DNA of 64,000 bases from a virus. Its lineage: Duplodnaviria > Heunggongvirae > Uroviricota > Caudoviricetes. The stretch is taken from positions 108,702-172,701 of the IMG/VR virus record IMGVR_UViG_2974569193_000001; one strand, 5' to 3'. Numbering within the stretch: position 1 is the stretch's first letter; every line of letters starts with the position of its first letter. Made by a program: the position numbers and the translations under genes. This document shows positions 5,404-58,153 of this stretch, one piece after another. The notes beneath the pieces were generated by a model. That model did no database searches. It saw only the letters and a program-made list of their open reading frames with translations, and had not been told where the DNA came from.

Positions 5404-5467
5404 CTCCAGGGGTTGGGATCAGTGATGTCGCCGATCCTTCTAGCTACCGCCTCCGGTTCTGTCAACA
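5404..5467 (-). promoter_or_regulatory. cassette-type promoter and leader for rIIA
   Basis: Minus strand: GTGTTGACAG, 17 bp, TAGAAG, then a leader ending GGAGTTGACT-ATG. Confidence 0.5.
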
Positions 5468-5719
5468 CACTCGATCCGGCTTTTTGGTCGTGAATCTTGA
5501 CGTTCGCGCGCGGGTCAGGCACAATTTTCGCATGTGGTCAATCCGCAACATCACGTCCGAAGCCTCCCACTCGATTCGCACCTGCACCTCCAAGGACTAC
5601 CCGTGGCCTGAGCGGGGGTCGGAGGGCTGCATTTGCCGCGAACCGGGCGCGCGCCGCGACCGGGACTTCATGTTGCTGGTCGATCGCCATGGCGAGATTC
5701 AATGGTACGCGAGGACGAC

Positions 5720-6127
5720 ATGCCCGATCCACGGCCCGAAGATCACGACGGTGGACGTCGCAACAAAATCCACGACCTGATCGTCGGTGACCCGCGCGAG
5801 GACCCGCGCTACAACCGCAAGCTCAGCAACCGCGACAAGACCGCCTTCCTCTGCGGGGTCCTGCGCCATCCGCCCCAGGCGTTCGACCTGGACCTGCCGT
5901 TCCCGGTCGAGGACTGGGTTGCCTCGGACGACAACTCCCTGATCGTGGCCGGCCTCTACCTGTCGGACCTGCGGCTCCAGTTCTACGACGCCCTGGAAGT
6001 CAAGCCCGAGGACGAGCACGGCTTCGTGCGCCAGGGCGAGGCCGAGTTCTGGCACCATGCCTTCAACGTCATGGTCGAGCGCCGCAGCCACGGCGTGCTG
6101 GTCTCCGACGGGCGCGTGCTCAATTGA
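5720..6127 (+). CDS. hypothetical protein
   Basis: ORF 5633..6127 trimmed to the ATG at 5720 (MPDPRPEDHDGG...). The R/P-rich upstream 29 aa are unlikely to be coding. Start is uncertain (alternatives at 5633 and 5702). Confidence 0.45.
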   Translation: MPDPRPEDHDGGRRNKIHDLIVGDPREDPRYNRKLSNRDKTAFLCGVLRHPPQAFDLDLPFPVEDWVASDDNSLIVAGLYLSDLRLQFYDALEVKPEDEHGFVRQGEAEFWHHAFNVMVERRSHGVLVSDGRVLN

Positions 6128-26026: not shown

Positions 26027-26611
26027 CTACTGGGGTTGGGCCGGCGCCGGGATGGCGAAGGCAAGGGATTGTTCGACCAGGGCCAAGAGGTCGGTTACCA
26101 GCTTGGGATTGAGGTCGTCCTCGGTCAGGGCGGCGGCGACGGCGTTGATCCGCGACCACGTGAAGTCCTCGGTCAGGCCAAGGTTGTGGAGGCGCAGCAG
26201 GGTCTCGCCGTGGATCGCCACGACGCCGGAAAGGTCACGCAGGTTGCGCAAGGTCAGCAGCCGCTCGGAAAGCATCTTGATCGCGCTGCCCGAGGGCGCC
26301 AGGAGCAGGCGCATCCAGTCGCCGCCGGGGTCGTCGCCCCGGCGCAGGTCCGGATGGTCCAGGGTCGCGCCCCAGATCACCGCGTGGGCTTTGGCGGCCA
26401 GCGACTGCCGGCGCTTGGCGATGGCCTCGGCTTCCTTGGCTTCGCGCTGGGCGGTCAGGAAGGTGGCGATGATCGCCGAGGGAAAGATCGCCACGAGGAA
26501 GAAGGCGAGGCGGTCGGTCCAGACCGCGTGCGGCGTGATCACGTTCATGGCCGTGCCGATCAGCACCGTGGGATAGATCAGGCCGCCGTGGCGGTGGATG
26601 AACTTGATCAT
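26027..26611 (-). CDS. membrane protein
   Basis: 194 aa with two N-terminal transmembrane segments. Preceded by a cassette promoter; a GGCCTCCG/CGGAGGCC hairpin in the leader contains the SD. Confidence 0.55.
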   Translation of the reverse strand: MIKFIHRHGGLIYPTVLIGTAMNVITPHAVWTDRLAFFLVAIFPSAIIATFLTAQREAKEAEAIAKRRQSLAAKAHAVIWGATLDHPDLRRGDDPGGDWMRLLLAPSGSAIKMLSERLLTLRNLRDLSGVVAIHGETLLRLHNLGLTEDFTWSRINAVAAALTEDDLNPKLVTDLLALVEQSLAFAIPAPAQPQ

Positions 26612-26674
26612 GAAAAGGGCCTCCGGCGTTGTCGTCGGAGGCCCTTCTAGCGAGTCGGTGTCAGGCTGTCAACA
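26612..26674 (-). promoter_or_regulatory. cassette promoter with a hairpin leader
   Basis: GTGTTGACAG, 17 bp, TAGAAG, then GGCCTCCG-ACGACAACG-CCGGAGGCC (an 8-bp stem that sequesters the SD), then CTTTTC-ATG. Confidence 0.55.
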
Positions 26675-26678
26675 CATG

Positions 26679-27293
26679 TCAGCCAGCCGCAGCCACCAAC
26701 TTCTCGATGCGGTTGAAGCCCAGTTCGAGCCGGCCCCAGAAGGCGCTCGGCACGTGCGGCTTGACGACCTCGGTGAAGCGCGCGCGCTCCTTGAGGTACA
26801 TCTTGGCCATGCCCAGGTGAGGCGCCTGGGTCGCCGGGTCCTTGATCGACGCCTCGACGTTGGCGATCCGGTCGGCCAGCTTCAGGATGCAGGCCTCGGG
26901 GTTCTCGCCGAGCTTGCGATAGATGTCCTCGTTGCGGGACTTGCGGTTGGGACCGATGCCCGAGACCGCCCAGACCAGCGCCGCGACGCGGTCGCCGAAC
27001 TTGTCCTCGATCATCTGACGGCGGGCCTCGGGCGTCATGTCGAGGTGGGTGTCCTCGATCACGTCGTGCAGCTTGGCCGCCGCCGTCCAGGTGAAGCCGG
27101 CATAGCCGAAATCGTCCAGGATGCGCTCGACCTTCTGGAGGTGGTAGAGGTAGGGCTGGCCGGCGTACTGCTGATCGCCGTGCGCGGCGATGGCGAACTT
27201 CGTCGGGTCCTCCTGGTGGAAGCCGCCGGGCGCGCCGACGTCCGCCATCAGGTTGGCCAGTTGGTCGGGATCGGACAGGGGCGTGTCGGTCAT
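26679..27293 (-). CDS. HD-domain small alarmone hydrolase ((p)ppGpp hydrolase, SpoT/Mesh1-like)
   Basis: 204 aa. AAHGDQQYAGQPYLYHLQKV ... LHDVIEDT matches the RelA/SpoT hydrolase HD motif (H..GQ.R..G.PY..H ... LHD..EDT). Confidence 0.75.
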   Translation of the reverse strand: MTDTPLSDPDQLANLMADVGAPGGFHQEDPTKFAIAAHGDQQYAGQPYLYHLQKVERILDDFGYAGFTWTAAAKLHDVIEDTHLDMTPEARRQMIEDKFGDRVAALVWAVSGIGPNRKSRNEDIYRKLGENPEACILKLADRIANVEASIKDPATQAPHLGMAKMYLKERARFTEVVKPHVPSAFWGRLELGFNRIEKLVAAAG

Positions 27294-50958: not shown

Positions 50959-51205
50959 AGGTGATCCTGTAGGGCAGACCGCCGACGCAAATCTTGCCCC
51001 GACGCCCGCTGGCGGTGGTGAAGGAAAAGCCCTGGCGGCCTTTGGTCCCGGCGCAAGCGAACCAGCGCCGGTGGAAGCTCACGATCGTCGAGCCCGTGTC
51101 GCGCTCGACGAGCCGCCGGGCATGGTTGCCCTCCCAGCCCAGGGCATAGAGCCCGATCGCCGTGAAGATCAGGCCCAGGGCGAAAGTCGCGGCGATCGAC
51201 CTCAC
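50948..51205 (-). CDS. hypothetical protein (N-terminal transmembrane helix)
   Basis: 85 aa. Confidence 0.45.
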   Translation of the reverse strand: MRSIAATFALGLIFTAIGLYALGWEGNHARRLVERDTGSTIVSFHRRWFACAGTKGRQGFSFTTASGRRGKICVGGLPYRITYDR

Positions 51206-51582
51206 GCGGCGGCCAGCCCGCCGATGACGTCGGTGACGATCCGGCGCTTTTCAGCCGACATGCCGGCCAGGGCCAGGATCGTGCCCGCGCCGATCTCGGC
51301 GACGGCGTTGTCCACGGCGGCGCGGCCGTCGGTCATGTAGGCGGGATCATCGACCGGCGGGTAGAAGCTCTCGATCGGCTGCTTCAGGAAGCGCGCGGCC
51401 TCGTAGAGCTTCGAGGACGAGATGCGGTTGGAGCCGCGCTCGTACTTCTGCACCTGCTGGAAGGTCAGGCCCAGAGCAGCGGCGAGGTCGCCCTGGGAGG
51501 CACCTTGCTCCTTGCGGGCTTGACGCAGGCGCTGGCCGACGAACAGGTCGACGGGGTGAGGGGTCTTGTCTTCGTCAGCCAT
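51202..51582 (-). CDS. XRE-family HTH transcriptional regulator
   Basis: Start at MADEDKTPHPVDLFVGQRLRQARKEQGASQGDLAAALGLTFQQVQKYERGSNRISSSKLYEAARFL, a Cro/CI-type helix-turn-helix. Confidence 0.65.
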   Translation of the reverse strand: MADEDKTPHPVDLFVGQRLRQARKEQGASQGDLAAALGLTFQQVQKYERGSNRISSSKLYEAARFLKQPIESFYPPVDDPAYMTDGRAAVDNAVAEIGAGTILALAGMSAEKRRIVTDVIGGLAAA

Positions 51583-52857: not shown

Positions 52858-52918
52858 GCGGGTCTCCTCTATGTCGTCGTCCCGACCCTCTTAGGTGGAG
52901 TTTCCACTTCTGTCAACA
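52858..52918 (-). promoter_or_regulatory. cassette promoter and leader
   Basis: GTGTGTTGACAG, 17 bp, TAAGAG, then GGTCGGGACGACGACATAGAGGAGACC, then CGC-GTG. Confidence 0.55.
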
Positions 52919-52935
52919 CACAACCGCCAGCAGGC

Positions 52936-52972
52936 AAAAAGAAACCGCCGACCCGAGGGCCGGCGGTTTTGG
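52936..52972. terminator. bidirectional rho-independent terminator
   Basis: CAAAAAGA-AACCGCCG-acccgagggc-CGGCGGTT-TTGGG, with T-rich tracts on both strands; lies after gene 52990..54852. Confidence 0.6.
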
Positions 52973-52989: not shown

Positions 52990-54852
52990 CTAGACGTCGA
53001 GGATGAAGTAGCGCTCGCTGGACGGGCCGTCGACTTCAACGACAAAGCCCGCCGCCTTCAGGGCCTCGATTGCCTTGGCGGTGTGGTAGAGCGACAGCGA
53101 GGACGCTTCGCTGATCCGGGACAGCGAGAAGCCATGCTCGGCGATCTTGAGGTCTTGCAGCGACAGTTCGTTCAGGGTGGTGATCACCACGCCGGCCGGG
53201 GCCAGTTCGTAGGCGCCCTCGAAATCGCGATCCTCCGAGAGGCGCACAAGGCCCTCCTGCTCGATGTTGTCCATCAGCGCGGCCAGGAACTCCGGATCGA
53301 CGTACCCGACGTGGCTGCGGATTTCGCTCAGATAGGCCGGGCCGTCGATGTCGACGGCATTGAGCACCGCCAGCAGGGCGATGCCCGGCATGACCGCGAC
53401 GACTTGCTCGGCCTTCTCCTCCTCGGACAGTTCGACCGGGATGCCGGCGCCGCGCGACAGCGGGATCACGGCCTCGTCCGGGTGCGTCTCGATATAGGCC
53501 TTGATCGCCCGCAGCGCGGACAGGAAGTGCGCCTGGGGGATTTCGTCCAGCTTGAACGTGATGCAGTCATCGTCGGTCAGGGGGTAGTGGGCGCGCAGGT
53601 TGGCGACGATGTCTTCGGGCCAAGCCTCCAGCACCGCGTCCCACAAAGCCTTGGGCATGTGGAAGGCGCCGAAGGACAGGGACTGCTCGGGCGTGGCGCT
53701 TTCGACGGCGGCGATGGACTCGTCGATGCTGGCGGCGCTGTAGCCGCCGACATAGCCGTTTTGCGACGCGTGGAGGACCTCGGCGGCCTCCTCGGCGCTC
53801 AGCCCCGTGATGGTCTTCTCCACGGCGTCCTCGGGCTCCTGGAGCGGCTCCAGGGTCTTCAGCCGATCGCTCAGGCCCTGGATGGACTCGTAGGCTTCGG
53901 CCGCGTCAACGTCGAGCTTCAGCGTCAAGCGCTCCGGCCGGGCGCTGAACTCCTCGCCCGTGATGGTGTAGGCGCCGTCGCGCTCCAGGATTTCCAGGTT
54001 CAGGAAACGCCCAGTGTCGTTGAGGGCGCGGAAGCGCGCATAGAGCGCGTCCTGCTCGATCAGATCGGTGAAGATGCCCTTGTCGAGCGCGAACAGCAGG
54101 TCACCGTAGGACCGCAACGCCTCGCCTTCGACGAAGGGCGCGCTCTCCTCGGGCTGCTCCCGCGTGAAGCGTAGGCCCGGCCCGGTGGTTTCGGTCTCTT
54201 GCGGCTTGATGAGGGGTTCTTCGATCACGGGGGCTTTCTCCTTGAAGATGATGGAGGTCAGTTCGTTCAGCGAAACCGACCAGTTGGTGTCGACCTGGGC
54301 GGCATAGCGGCCGGAAAGGTCGTTCCATTCGACCTTGCCGATCTCACCGCTGAGCATCTTGCTGTCCCAGGCCGAAGGGAACGTGACGTCGGCGCCGCCG
54401 AAGAAGTCGGTCAGGTGCCCCGCGAAGGCCTCGATGTCCTCGCGGGTCGCCGGGCGCACTTCACGCAGCGGGTAGGAGTGATGGACGCCGGGCCGCGCGT
54501 CTTCGATCTCGACGAAGATCGGCCCGTGCTCGGTGTGGAAGCGCTGGGTGTAGCCGATCATCTCGCCTTGGGGGGTCATGACCATCACCGGTAGGGCCGA
54601 GAACTTGTGGTTCAGCCGATCCACATAGTCGCTCGGATAGGCGGTGGTCGTGTAGATCAGGTTGTCGCCGCGCCGCACGCCGCTGTAGTCGATCACGCAG
54701 AGGGGCACGGCGGTGCCCGGCGGCAGGCGCGGGCGGTCGACGAAGACCTGACCATCGGCCACCGGCGGGGACGATCCATGGATATAGGGGAGCACCTCGC
54801 TGAAGGTGGCGGTCCAGGCGGGCTTGACCCGGTCGAGGAAAGTTTCGGTCAA
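52990..54852 (-). CDS. large hypothetical protein
   Basis: 620 aa, clean ORF; ends at a hairpin terminator. Confidence 0.6.
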   Translation of the reverse strand: MTETFLDRVKPAWTATFSEVLPYIHGSSPPVADGQVFVDRPRLPPGTAVPLCVIDYSGVRRGDNLIYTTTAYPSDYVDRLNHKFSALPVMVMTPQGEMIGYTQRFHTEHGPIFVEIEDARPGVHHSYPLREVRPATREDIEAFAGHLTDFFGGADVTFPSAWDSKMLSGEIGKVEWNDLSGRYAAQVDTNWSVSLNELTSIIFKEKAPVIEEPLIKPQETETTGPGLRFTREQPEESAPFVEGEALRSYGDLLFALDKGIFTDLIEQDALYARFRALNDTGRFLNLEILERDGAYTITGEEFSARPERLTLKLDVDAAEAYESIQGLSDRLKTLEPLQEPEDAVEKTITGLSAEEAAEVLHASQNGYVGGYSAASIDESIAAVESATPEQSLSFGAFHMPKALWDAVLEAWPEDIVANLRAHYPLTDDDCITFKLDEIPQAHFLSALRAIKAYIETHPDEAVIPLSRGAGIPVELSEEEKAEQVVAVMPGIALLAVLNAVDIDGPAYLSEIRSHVGYVDPEFLAALMDNIEQEGLVRLSEDRDFEGAYELAPAGVVITTLNELSLQDLKIAEHGFSLSRISEASSLSLYHTAKAIEALKAAGFVVEVDGPSSERYFILDV

Positions 54853-54861
54853 GGTGGTCCC

Positions 54862-55326
54862 CTATTCGCTCGGAATGACGGACGCCGGGGCGTCCAGGTC
54901 GAAGGTCTCGCCCTCATCGGTGAGGGCGAAGGTGGCGTAGCCGTCAGGGCTCTTGACCATGGACAGCATCTTGATCAGGCCGTGCTTCTCCAGCGCCTGG
55001 GCGGCGGGATAGTCGGCGTGCTGGTAGAAGACGTTGAGCCGCCCGCCGTTACCCAGGATGCGCACGCTGCGCAGCAACATGGCCTCTTGCTCGCTCAAGC
55101 CCAGCGTACCCTTGATCCGCACGCGGGCCAGATGCACGTCGATCACATGCGTTTGGCCCTCATGCTCGAACTCGATGATCGCCAGCGGCCCGAACGAGCC
55201 GTTGGTCACCGCCAGGATCACGCCCTCGAACTCGGTCGTCTTGCGGGCGGTGATCGGGACGTAGTAGTCGAAGAACACGGTCTTGCCCTTCATCACGTGG
55301 TGGGCCTGGGGCGCGACAGTGCTCAT
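54862..55326 (-). CDS. hypothetical protein
   Basis: 154 aa. Confidence 0.5.
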   Translation of the reverse strand: MSTVAPQAHHVMKGKTVFFDYYVPITARKTTEFEGVILAVTNGSFGPLAIIEFEHEGQTHVIDVHLARVRIKGTLGLSEQEAMLLRSVRILGNGGRLNVFYQHADYPAAQALEKHGLIKMLSMVKSPDGYATFALTDEGETFDLDAPASVIPSE

Positions 55327-55574
55327 GTTGTGGAGTCCTTCTTGCGGGCGGTGTAGTGGAACTCGTCGTGCATGCGCCCGTCCAAGGTGATCTCGTAGCC
55401 GGGACCCAGTTCAGCCAGGATGCGCGCCTCGATCTCGGCGAAGTCGATGTTGGCCATCGCACGCTCGGCCGCCGCCGCCTGCTCCAGAAAGCTGCTCCTG
55501 ATCTTGGCGCCGGCCTCGGTACGGATCGGGATGTTCTGGATGGGTGGCTCGGACTTGGACAGGCGCTCGGTCAT
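55323..55574 (-). CDS. hypothetical protein
   Basis: C-terminal 83 aa of ORF 55323..55739 (MTERLSKSEPPIQN...), start overlapping the gcrA stop as TGATG. Confidence 0.45.
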   Translation of the reverse strand: MTERLSKSEPPIQNIPIRTEAGAKIRSSFLEQAAAAERAMANIDFAEIEARILAELGPGYEITLDGRMHDEFHYTARKKDSTT

Positions 55575-56119
55575 CAAGCCCTCTTTTTCTTGCCGACGTG
55601 CGAGGGGCGCGTGGCGGCCTTGTAGACGAATGGGCGATAGGCCATGCGGTGGTGGTCGATGCAGTAGACGCCCTGCGCGGTGCGGCACCCGCAATGGCCG
55701 AAGTTCTGGTCGGTCGGGTCGCCGTAGGGCCAGCGGCACATCCCGCGCCCCAGGCTCAGGGTGGGGACGACAGTCTCGGGACGCACCGGGATCGGCGCCT
55801 GCCCCTCGGGGACCAGTTCGATCTTGGGCTTCGAAGGCGTTTCGGCCTTGGGCTTGGCGGCTTTCTTGGGCTTGGCGACCTTGACCTTCTTGATCTGGAT
55901 GCCGTAGCCGCGCGTTTTCTTGCGGCGCTCCTGGAGCGGCAAGACCTTGTCGCCCAGTTCGCCCTTCTGGCGCAGGCGATCGCCCATGCCGCAGACGGCG
56001 CTCTTGCTGCGCGGCTCGCGTAGCATTTCCCCGATCTGCTTGGTCCCGACAGGCTCGGCCCAGAGCTTCTTGAGCAGGGCGATGTCCTCGGCCAGCCAGT
56101 CCGACTTACGCTTCTTCAC
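55574..56119 (-). CDS. gcrA: GcrA-family cell-cycle regulator homologue
   Basis: 181 aa. N-terminal W..E....LKKLWAEPVGTKQIGEMLR and C-terminal CRWPYGDP...FGHCGC...GVYCIDHHRMAY follow the GcrA pattern (N-terminal DNA-binding helix, C-terminal Cys/His cluster). Confidence 0.8.
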   Translation of the reverse strand: MKKRKSDWLAEDIALLKKLWAEPVGTKQIGEMLREPRSKSAVCGMGDRLRQKGELGDKVLPLQERRKKTRGYGIQIKKVKVAKPKKAAKPKAETPSKPKIELVPEGQAPIPVRPETVVPTLSLGRGMCRWPYGDPTDQNFGHCGCRTAQGVYCIDHHRMAYRPFVYKAATRPSHVGKKKRA

Positions 56120-56127
56120 CTTGAACG

Positions 56128-56316
56128 CTACTCCTGTTTTGCCTTGGCGGGGCGCCGGCGGCTCGTGGGATGGGGGACGAACACCAGGGCGACGGTCGAG
56201 CCGCCGGTGTAAAAGGTCCGGCGGCTATAGAGCCAACCGCCCTCGACTTCCAGGCGATCGGTGACTTGCCCGTCCGCTTCGTCGACTTTTTCCCATTTCG
56301 TCTTCTTGGCCATGTG
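56128..56316 (-). CDS. hypothetical small protein
   Basis: Start at MAKKTKWEKV with SD GAGGGG. Confidence 0.4.
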   Translation of the reverse strand, partial: HMAKKTKWEKVDEADGQVTDRLEVEGGWLYSRRTFYTGGSTVALVFVPHPTSRRRPAKAKQE

Positions 56317-56449
56317 CCCCTCGAAATTCGCCGGCACCCTAGAGACGCGCCGATGTGTTGACAAGCGCAAAATAGCTCTGGCTGGCGAGTGTTGACAAGG
56401 AGGCGGTGGTCCCTTAGAAGGGCGGCGACGACAACGAAAGGAGGCGCCG
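56317..56449. promoter_or_regulatory. divergent control region with tandem GTGTTGACAAG boxes
   Basis: Plus strand: GTGTTGACAAG at 56356-56366 and again at 56390-56400; the second is followed after 17 bp by TAGAAG and GG-CGGCGACGACAAC-GA-AAGGAGG, then CGCCG-ATG (56450). The same boxes read TTGTCAACAC on the minus strand upstream of the 56316 gene and gcrA. Confidence 0.55.
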
Positions 56450-56749
56450 ATGCGCTACGTTCTGGAGTACATGGACTGCGACGACCAGATCGTCCAGGTC
56501 GACTTCGAGGCCGCCACCCGCGCCTCGGCGATCGCCAAGGCCAAGCGCCTCTTCGTGAAGGCGGTCGAGGCCAGCGGTCGGTCGATCTTCACCGGCTATA
56601 TGTTCGAGGACCACTCGATCACCATGAAGGTGAAGCTGGTCCCGTTCGGCACCCTGAGCCGCTACCTGGGTCTGGGCAAGGTCACCGTCGCCAACATCGC
56701 GTTCGACGACCGCGACGCCAAGATCGCCCGCCAGGACATGGCCGCATGA
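56450..56749 (+). CDS. hypothetical protein
   Basis: 99 aa; first gene after the tandem cassette promoters. Confidence 0.5.
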   Translation: MRYVLEYMDCDDQIVQVDFEAATRASAIAKAKRLFVKAVEASGRSIFTGYMFEDHSITMKVKLVPFGTLSRYLGLGKVTVANIAFDDRDAKIARQDMAA

Positions 56750-56958
56750 TCAGGGTCGAGGACGTCAAGCCCGGCTTCATCTATCGCGGCGGCAAGGGCG
56801 GCGCCCTGCGCCAAGTGGTCAGCTACGGCGCCCACGAGGGCTTTGTCTGCTGGGCCAACCCGCACGATCGCCTGCCCTATGGCGGGTTCCTCACCACCAC
56901 CTGCACCAGCCGGGCGTCGTTCGCCCGCTGGGCCGACAAGATCGAGGAAGAGGTTTGA
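56746..56958 (+). CDS. hypothetical protein
   Basis: MIRVEDVKPGF... (70 aa), the in-frame C-terminal part of ORF 56389..56958, with ATGA overlap to the upstream gene. Confidence 0.45.
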   Translation: MIRVEDVKPGFIYRGGKGGALRQVVSYGAHEGFVCWANPHDRLPYGGFLTTTCTSRASFARWADKIEEEV

Positions 56959-57245
56959 TCACCACCTTCCTACGCTGCACCCACCGCGACGCCGAGGGGC
57001 GTCGGTACCTGGAGTTCCGCGAGCCAGACCTCGTCCAGCGTCTCTATGTGCGCAAGCCGGCCGACGATTGGACCCAGGGCTACCCTATCGTCCTGGAGGA
57101 CTTCTACAGTGGCTCGCCCGGCGGCAAGACCCTCTTCCAGGCCGGCAAGCGCCGGGGCTGCGGCATCGGAGCGTTCTTTCGCGCCTACCCCGAGGTCTAC
57201 AGCCTCATCGTTTTGCGCCAGGAGGCACTCGATGCCCAGGTCTAA
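56955..57245 (+). CDS. hypothetical protein
   Basis: 96 aa; TTG start overlapping the upstream TGA. Confidence 0.5.
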   Translation: MITTFLRCTHRDAEGRRYLEFREPDLVQRLYVRKPADDWTQGYPIVLEDFYSGSPGGKTLFQAGKRRGCGIGAFFRAYPEVYSLIVLRQEALDAQV

Positions 57246-57495
57246 GCGCCCCAACCTGCCGATCACCGTCGCCGACCTCAAGGCGTTCCTGGAGAAGTTC
57301 CCGGACGACATGAAGGTCGGCATCCGCGCCGGCGGCGGACGCTTCACTGGCTTCACCGAGGTCGAGGTCAAGAACCTCACCTCCTACGGCGCCGAGAAGG
57401 ATCGCCTGACCATGGAGACCTCTCGCGGGGCCAACATCTTCAAAGGCTACAAGGGCAAGATTTCCGAGCCCTTCGACGCCCTGATCTTCGACTAG
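57232..57495 (+). CDS. hypothetical protein
   Basis: MPRSKRPNLPITVADLKAF... (87 aa), the in-frame part of ORF 57046..57495, with SD GGAGG. Confidence 0.45.
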   Translation: MPRSKRPNLPITVADLKAFLEKFPDDMKVGIRAGGGRFTGFTEVEVKNLTSYGAEKDRLTMETSRGANIFKGYKGKISEPFDALIFD

Positions 57496-57503
57496 GAGGG
57501 ACC

Positions 57504-57758
57504 ATGAGCAATCGCGTTTGGATCGAACTCGAAAAGCCAAAGACGGCCGAGGAAGGCAAGGCGCGCGCCGCGCTTCTCTGCAAGATGCTCGGCCGGCTGG
57601 GCGTCGAGTTCGGCCGCTATCCCGCCGTGTTCTGGAGTGAGCGCGACGGCAACTACGCCTTCACCCTCGATGGCGGTGGCAGCTACGCCGTCTGCGAGGG
57701 CGCTGATCCTGGCCACTGGTACAACCTGGACTACATAGTGGAGGGGCTCGAAGCGTGA
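57504..57758 (+). CDS. hypothetical protein
   Basis: 84 aa; SD AGGAGGG. Confidence 0.5.
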   Translation: MSNRVWIELEKPKTAEEGKARAALLCKMLGRLGVEFGRYPAVFWSERDGNYAFTLDGGGSYAVCEGADPGHWYNLDYIVEGLEA

Positions 57759-58153
57759 CCCAGGACACCTTCCCGCCGATCCGTTCCCGCGAAGCCAGGG
57801 ACGAGGAAATCCATGGCTTCGTCGTCCGCTACGGCTGGTTCTGGAACGTGGTGATGCTGAACGGCGACATCCTGGCGTTCGACCCCGACGACGTCGATCC
57901 GTGCCGCTACGGCGTGACCGACAAGGACGCCTTCCGCAACCTCGCCGGCCCGGTCGAGACGATCGTCTCCTACGAGTGCGTCCAGGGCTGGCACGCCAAG
58001 GCCAAGCACCTGTCGGGCTGGACCGAGCGCCACGACGACCGCCTCGAAGCCCTGCGCACGGCCTATCGCCGGCTGGAGGCGCAGCGCGAGCGCAACTCCA
58101 AGGCTCTGGAGGAGCACGGCGGCATCTTCAAATTCCTGGAGAAGCAGGACTGA
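57755..58153 (+). CDS. hypothetical protein
   Basis: 132 aa; GTG start overlapping the upstream TGA. Confidence 0.5.
   Translation: MTQDTFPPIRSREARDEEIHGFVVRYGWFWNVVMLNGDILAFDPDDVDPCRYGVTDKDAFRNLAGPVETIVSYECVQGWHAKAKHLSGWTERHDDRLEALRTAYRRLEAQRERNSKALEEHGGIFKFLEKQD

Follow-up and report, generated by a model that had tools for sequence, protein, structure and literature searches.

[quoted passage not shown] Phage copies of a master cell-cycle regulator of the host are an attractive example of host takeover. The cellular protein is a sigma-70 region-2 cofactor present at nearly all active sigma-70 promoters (Haakonsen, 2015, PMC4647560). Phage homologues were first described in 2012 in phiCbK-type phages, including gp222 of phiCbK and gp204 of CcrRogue (Gill et al., 2012, PMC3556154). 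The cells that these phages infect are G1 swarmer cells, where GcrA of the host is undetectable, and Gill and colleagues proposed that phage GcrA raises host replication functions in the infected swarmer cells (Gill et al., 2012, PMC3556154). Later papers repeat this idea as a hypothesis only (PMC4647560, PMC9437464, PMC13459779), and the literature yielded no experimental work on a phage GcrA. In non-replicating swarmer cells, a viral GcrA could shift sigma-70 transcription to a state that resembles S phase.

The window, i.e. the whole stretch of 64,000 nucleotides that was analysed, belongs to Caulobacter phage CcrBL10 (MH588544 / NC_048045), to which positions 54000-58000 are 100% identical over 4,001 bases by megablast; the first letter of the window is position 108702 of that record. 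CcrBL10 is a phiCbK-like phage with C. vibrioides CB15 as its recorded host, in agreement with the earlier note, which had linked the gene to phiCbK-type phages and predicted a Caulobacter-like alphaproteobacterial host. Two Synechococcus phages and a Brevundimonas phage also show weak matches to the GcrA sigma-interacting domain (SID) (PP438432.1, OM868079.1 and ON529858.1; 42-46% identity over approximately 49 residues, E = 9e-5 to 7e-4). Thus, phage GcrA-like modules are not confined to alphaproteobacterial hosts, and GcrA on its own can mislead as a host marker. The CcrBL10 record already names the gene product, HOT99_gp193, 'GcrA cell cycle regulator'. Phage gcrA as an entity is already known, and since it has been annotated from 2012 onwards, no new entity is added here. 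The gene itself is as follows.

55574..56119, minus strand: gcrA homologue (CcrBL10 HOT99_gp193), an open reading frame with a GTG start, 181 codons and a stop

The same note had read this gene as encoding a GcrA-family protein with both domains, and the strings that it quoted are all present in the translation (DWLAEDIALLKKLWAE...IGEMLR, and CRWPYGDP...GHCGC...YCIDHHRMAY). A profile search, by which it had proposed that this reading be judged, returned a similarity far beyond chance: HOT99_gp193 matches the Pfam family GcrA (PF07750) at 73.7 bits (E = 2.7e-20) over profile positions 2-151 of 155, a full-length match above the curated gathering cut-off of 26.9 bits. By phmmer, the protein matches the solved C. 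crescentus GcrA chain 7ye1_G over residues 7-168 (E = 9e-18) and the C-terminal SID in 5yix_B (E = 3.3e-14), while similarity to the isolated DNA-binding domain in 5yiu_A is weak (E = 0.29). Alignment with C. crescentus GcrA, a further check that had been suggested, gave 36% identity, with the zinc ligands and most sigma contacts matched. On the other hand, HOT99_gp193 scored 79.7 bits against the NCBIfam equivalog model NF050816 (sig70cofacGcrA), below its cut-off of 280 bits, so functional equivalence of the phage and cellular proteins is not to be assumed. By these scores, HOT99_gp193 is a member of the GcrA family and not an equivalog of the chromosomal regulator.

HOT99_gp193 consists of a DNA-binding domain (approximately residues 7-58), a Lys/Pro-rich linker (approximately 59-115), a CCCH zinc SID (approximately 116-163) and a basic C-terminal tail. 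Residues were mapped in an alignment of HOT99_gp193, C. crescentus GcrA and further members of the family, and the alignment was read against the work of Wu and colleagues, who assigned the zinc ligands of C. crescentus GcrA (C118, C133, C143 and H146) and the roles of its sigma- and DNA-contacting residues (Wu et al., 2018, PMC5887438). Residue frequencies were taken from a sample of about 118 GcrA family representatives. The zinc ligands are found in the phage protein as C128, C143, C153 and H156, with the exact C-X14-C-X9-C-X2-H spacing, at positions that are 99-100% conserved in the sampled family. Among the sigma-70 region-2 contacts, W120, G123, D124, P125, F130, Y142, A150 and Y151 (host numbering) are identical, and K119 is replaced by the family-majority residue R; in total, nine of the 10 contacts are identical or family-majority. 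Position 129 of the SID is variable across the family. F132 is replaced by His, a residue found in 1% of the sampled family, and an F132A substitution in host GcrA abolished sigma binding (Wu et al., 2018, PMC5887438). As judged from its residues, the sigma-70-binding zinc module of phage GcrA is intact, and we infer from it that the protein binds sigma-70.

An AlphaFold2 model, built from a shallow alignment of four sequences, folds the N-terminal domain into three helices (residues 10-20, 26-32 and 39-51; pLDDT 87-93). The linker and the SID fall below pLDDT 50, and the SID has no confident model. A Foldseek search of this model against the PDB gave no match below E = 1.7 and did not recover the GcrA structures; this search is uninformative because the three-helix domain is too small and unspecific, and because the SID lies below pLDDT 50.

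Phage gcrA was found by tblastn in all 26 matching phage records. After merging of GenBank/RefSeq pairs, these records represent 18 non-redundant genomes, all of phiCbK-like Caulobacter phages. The protein encoded in the window agrees with that of CcrBL10 in 100% of its residues (99.4% by tblastn, where the GTG start goes uncounted); its identity is 93% with the Rogue group and 56-59% with the phiCbK, Karma, Magneto, Swift and BL57 groups. A word-indexed protein search gave four proteins only, and an exhaustive profile search was needed to see the GcrA family, which comprises 14,513 representatives. The phage clade makes up the top six of these and the sole ones below 1e-30; since only six representatives reach this level, phage-type GcrA forms a small, distinct clade. 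For gcrA, dN/dS amounts to 0.18 when BL10 is compared with Rogue and to 0.46-0.65 in deeper pairs, and phage gcrA is under purifying selection. A similar arrangement, with a divergent gene cluster and a small upstream gene followed by gcrA, occurs on a 2.4-kb metagenomic contig. Two further GcrA relatives from the profile search (P0005, 410 aa; P0008, 319 aa) carry three to five tandem N-terminal DNA-binding domains with a single zinc SID, a multi-head architecture that differs from cellular GcrA.

The earlier note had placed gcrA next to a divergent control region. Such a region is present, but gcrA does not adjoin it directly: a 61-aa gene lies in between, which makes gcrA the second gene of a leftward operon. 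This operon comprises five genes and runs from a predicted sigma-70-type promoter to a strong terminator, with the following parts in addition to gcrA.

56128..56313, minus strand: gp192, first gene of the operon, 61 aa; matches phrog_14288; syntenic in Rogue, phiCbK and BL57
55323..55574, minus strand: protein of 83 aa with motif A only of the DNA polymerase I palm; PF00476 at 47.1 bits, profile positions 118-171 of 381
52990..55326, minus strand: gp195 (154 aa) and gp196 (590-620 aa), the last two genes of the operon
52942..52969, minus strand: intrinsic terminator of the operon, a 12-bp stem with eight G-C pairs followed by a T run

The gene order around gcrA is the same in Rogue, phiCbK and BL57. 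The start of the 83-aa protein overlaps the gcrA stop (ATGA), and its stretch QNIPIRTEAG...DFAEIEARILA matches residues 341-394 of Pol I in 6vdc_A; this polymerase fragment of 56 residues is conserved as a free-standing protein beside gcrA in Rogue, phiCbK and BL57. At the distal end of the operon, gp196 (52990-54852, minus strand) is annotated from 54762, while its open reading frame extends upstream to a TTG at 54852, and phrog_12845 aligns to gp196 only from profile position 86; the true start may lie further upstream than annotated. Directly past the terminator lies the next promoter of the repeated cassette type described below, with GTGTTGACA at 52911-52919. Behind it, in the next transcription unit and six genes downstream of gcrA, lies gp199 (51202-51582, minus strand), an XRE-family helix-turn-helix protein in the same relative position as phiCbK gp216 (TgrL), a characterized early host-directed repressor.

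The divergent region upstream of gp192 (56314-56449) is 136 bp long and contains the following elements.

56355-56365 and 56389-56399, plus strand: two direct copies of GTGTTGACAAG, 34 bp apart, invariant in four lineages
56336..56364, minus strand: predicted leftward promoter of the gcrA operon from a pattern scan, with -35 TTGTCA, a 17-nt spacer and -10 TAGGGT
56392..56420, plus strand: predicted rightward cassette promoter, TTGACA-17-TAGAAG, which would drive gp191 and downstream genes

The first GTGTTGACAAG copy, read on the opposite strand, is the leftward -35, and the second copy is the rightward -35. In CcrBL10, Rogue, phiCbK and BL57 the leftward hexamers and their 17-nt spacing are invariant while the spacer sequence varies; conserved hexamers across a variable spacer of fixed length give this predicted site a promoter-like character. 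Past TAGGGT there follow a Shine-Dalgarno-like GAGGGG and the ATG of gp192. A generic TTGACA/TATAAT scan had offered TTGTCA-18-TATTTT as the leftward promoter; it was rejected in favour of TTGTCA-17-TAGGGT because TATTTT is not conserved in the comparative alignment. The rightward operon has its GACGACAAC leader at 56427-56435, and leader and -35 are conserved in four lineages. Unlike this cassette class, the predicted leftward promoter has TAGGGT as its -10, lacks the GACGACAAC leader and has the extended -35 motif inverted.

These features suggest, with fair probability, that phage GcrA serves host takeover in swarmer cells as a sigma-70 cofactor, by providing GcrA activity or standing in for it. 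[quoted passage not shown] It would thereby ride with host RNA polymerase, as cellular GcrA does. In an infected G1 swarmer cell it could then supply or replace GcrA activity, and sigma-70 transcription would be reprogrammed in the phage's favour. The match in family and architecture, the retained zinc ligands, the confident three-helix model of the N-terminal domain, the conservation of the gene, the promoter signals, the terminator and the swarmer-cell tropism of these phages support this proposal, whereas the F132H substitution in the SID, the low equivalog score and the lack of a confident AlphaFold2 model of the SID count against it. When the protein is made, which DNA it targets and how it affects host or phage are at this stage matters of prediction from sequence. 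In a phiCbK infection RNA-seq study (PLoS Genet, 2023), which used an asynchronous culture, the single gene read was host dnaQ, a gene upregulated by GcrA according to Gill (2012); it was unchanged. This is a weak negative for the version of the proposal in which host replication genes are induced.

What such a cofactor would recognize on DNA depends on its N-terminal domain. W3, W15, G38 and R42 (host numbering) are all kept in this domain of HOT99_gp193, with the conserved Trp preceded by a basic extension of five residues (KKRKS). The recognition helix of HOT99_gp193 has the sequence RSKSAVCGMGDRL, versus TRNAVIGKVHRL in C. crescentus GcrA. Positions R33, N34, I37, G38, K39, H41 and R42 are K, S, C, G, M, D and R in the phage protein; in other words, five of the seven residues that read methylated GANTC are changed (R33K, N34S, I37C, K39M and H41D). 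The replaced residues are those of most of the sampled family (R33 in 96%, N34 in 81%, I37 in 84%, K39 in 94% and H41 in 75%). N34S is common to all four lineages of Caulobacter phages, and K39M is restricted to the BL10/Rogue group. HOT99_gp193 thus does not carry the set of methyl-pocket and base-contact residues of a cellular m6A-GANTC reader. Because the recognition helix differs at most of these positions, the DNA preference of phage GcrA is probably not the canonical high-affinity methylated YGAKTCK site.

This bears on the suggestion of the earlier note that the repeated cassette promoters of the window are the targets. In the cassettes, TGGCTG-N5-GTGTTGACAG is separated by 17 nt from TAGAAG or TATAAG, after which come a GACGACAAC leader, a Shine-Dalgarno sequence and a start codon. 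Examples of the 15 cassette sites lie at 5460, 26667, 33759, 38582, 48086, 52911, 56389, 58349 and 61447. Some cassette leaders sit in the loop of a hairpin, which pairs CCTCC with the GGAGG Shine-Dalgarno sequence. When the whole window was scanned with Rfam, no family reached the gathering score; the conserved leader of the cassettes thus corresponds to no known RNA family. A phage GcrA that steered sigma-70 RNA polymerase to these promoters via methylated GANTC or another motif would fit several observations. The cassettes resemble sigma-70 promoters and recur many times (the window has 15 copies of GTGTTGACA versus 0.2 expected, and 12 of GACGACAAC versus 0.78 expected), and host GcrA is found at nearly all active sigma-70 promoters (PMC4647560). 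Moreover, 13 of the 65 GANTC sites of the window fall in the annotated-intergenic 6.2% of the sequence, an approximately 3-fold enrichment (p = 1.5e-4) that is slightly inflated by two sites inside a conserved open reading frame unannotated in CcrBL10.

The enrichment has to be seen against the overall count of GANTC. The 65 sites compare with 349 expected under a first-order Markov model (a 5-fold depletion) and 205 expected from base composition. Of the 16 XYNY'X' palindromes, none is as depleted as GANTC; CTNAG and CANTG are also depleted (approximately 0.34-0.35). The host genome is about 4.04 Mb in size. The C. crescentus genome holds 4,542 GANTC sites (Haakonsen, 2015, PMC4647560). The density is approximately 1.0 per kb in both window and host, so the depletion mirrors the host, and phage-specific avoidance of GANTC was rejected.

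Near the promoters themselves, GANTC is sparse. Sites lie within about 60 bp of four of the 15 cassettes, and in two of these cases they are intergenic and conserved; the other 11 cassettes have none at that distance. The 136-bp gcrA control region has no GANTC in any of the four lineages, and a single site lies between 53890 and 61860. The two conserved, promoter-embedded sites are invariant in four lineages, a point in favour of the cassettes as targets. At 26652, CGACTCG, a perfect YGAKTCK site, abuts a cassette -10. This conservation is uninformative, however, because the whole promoter block of 80 nt is invariant: the promoter and leader upstream of gp253 (26600-26700, minus strand), in which CGAGTCG touches the -10, are nearly invariant over approximately 80 nt in CcrBL10, Rogue, phiCbK and BL57, whose genomes are elsewhere about 76% identical. 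At 5492, GAATC abuts a TTGACG -35, but among the contexts ranked for host GcrA its own, AGATTCA, comes last (ranking: Haakonsen, 2015, PMC4647560). This second site belongs to a promoter-like sequence, TTGACG-17-CACAAT, upstream of the conserved open reading frame mentioned above (5532-5780, plus strand; 82 aa from an ATG at 5532), which occupies the gap between rIIA and gp282 and is annotated in Rogue and phiCbK. A perfect YGAKTCK at 5573 was not accepted as part of a promoter, since it falls within this reading frame and is not conserved in phiCbK.

Two published observations point in the same direction. In the genomes of Alphaproteobacteria phages, predicted GcrA sites showed no positional asymmetry (Mascolo et al., PMC9437464), and no DNA methyltransferase has been described in phiCbK-like phages, except for an ambiguous rRNA/DNA methyltransferase in Colossus (Gill, 2012, PMC3556154). 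Methylation-dependent activation of the cassettes is not supported, given the sparse GANTC sites, the lack of asymmetry, the lack of a described methyltransferase and the altered methyl pocket, in which N34 and I37 are substituted. The suggestion that cassette promoters are GcrA targets through GANTC is thus not supported by where the sites lie, and neither is the expected enrichment of GANTC near them, although a different DNA motif may be read. Overall, GcrA-directed activation of the phage cassettes, through methylated GANTC or another motif, is regarded as unlikely.

The combination of a conserved SID with an altered reading head could alternatively mean that phage GcrA occupies the GcrA groove of sigma-70 and blocks S-phase transcription of the host, thereby freezing the cell cycle. 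The confinement of K39M to the BL10/Rogue group is compatible with this, as is the finding that host GcrA was impaired by K39A, by N34A/I37A and by several substitutions that fill the pocket (Wu, 2018, PMC5887438). Yet the DNA-binding domain is conserved within the phage clade and under purifying selection (dN/dS of this domain alone, 0.14-0.71), and retention of W3, W15, G38 and R42 would be unexpected in a mere plug. In addition, swarmer cells lack GcrA when they are infected (PMC3556154); thus, there would be little host GcrA to compete with early in infection. Competitive inhibition of this kind is judged less likely still than cassette activation.

A more specific version of the cofactor proposal keeps the sigma-binding function and gives the altered helix a role of its own. 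Here, phage GcrA would have been retuned as a methylation-independent sigma-70 cofactor whose rewritten helix (K33, S34, C37, M39 and D41) reads a phage-specific element, the candidates being the invariant TGGCTG-N5-GTGTTGACA upstream block and the GACGACAAC cassette leader. If true, it would make phage GcrA a sigma-appropriation device derived from a host cell-cycle regulator. In this particular form it is put forward as a long shot, slightly more doubtful than inhibition of host GcrA. In general terms, an intact sigma module, an altered methyl-GANTC head and phage promoters that mostly lack GANTC give a sharper hypothesis, which points to sigma-70 binding with altered DNA specificity rather than to methylation-dependent activation of phage promoters. 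Finally, that gcrA is a captured host gene decaying as a passenger without a role in infection might be argued from its fairly fast evolution between phage lineages and from the lack of any reported phage gcrA phenotype, but this is highly improbable for a gene that is kept in 26 records, with fixed synteny and a conserved promoter in at least four lineages, an intact reading frame, all zinc ligands and a dN/dS below 1.

The favoured reading, a sigma-70 cofactor that would supply or replace GcrA activity in swarmer cells, can be set beside three groups of known systems. The closest are the GcrA-like proteins of other phiCbK-like phages, such as phiCbK gp222 and CcrRogue gp204, which represent the same gene with the same size, neighbours and divergent intergenic region; nothing substantial differs, apart from the K39M substitution specific to BL10/Rogue. 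The second is GcrA of C. crescentus (CC_2245; 5YIV, 5YIX, 7YE1), with which the phage protein shares a three-helix DNA-binding domain, a disordered basic linker, a CCCH SID and a basic tail, and with which its zinc ligands and most sigma-70 region-2 contacts are identical. Unlike the chromosomal protein, to which it is only 36% identical, it carries R33K, N34S, I37C, K39M, H41D and F132H and the KKRKS extension. Its gene, unlike the host gene, is virus-encoded and has a predicted phage promoter without the CtrA-box or GANTC features of host gcrA. The third group comprises AsiA and MotA of phage T4, which are phage factors for remodelling and appropriation of sigma-70, and the actinobacterial RbpA, which binds sigma region 2. 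AsiA binds sigma region 4, not region 2, and phage GcrA has no sequence or fold relationship to any of these proteins. By analogy, however, phage GcrA may be likened to them as a small protein that binds the housekeeping sigma factor and changes which promoters fire.
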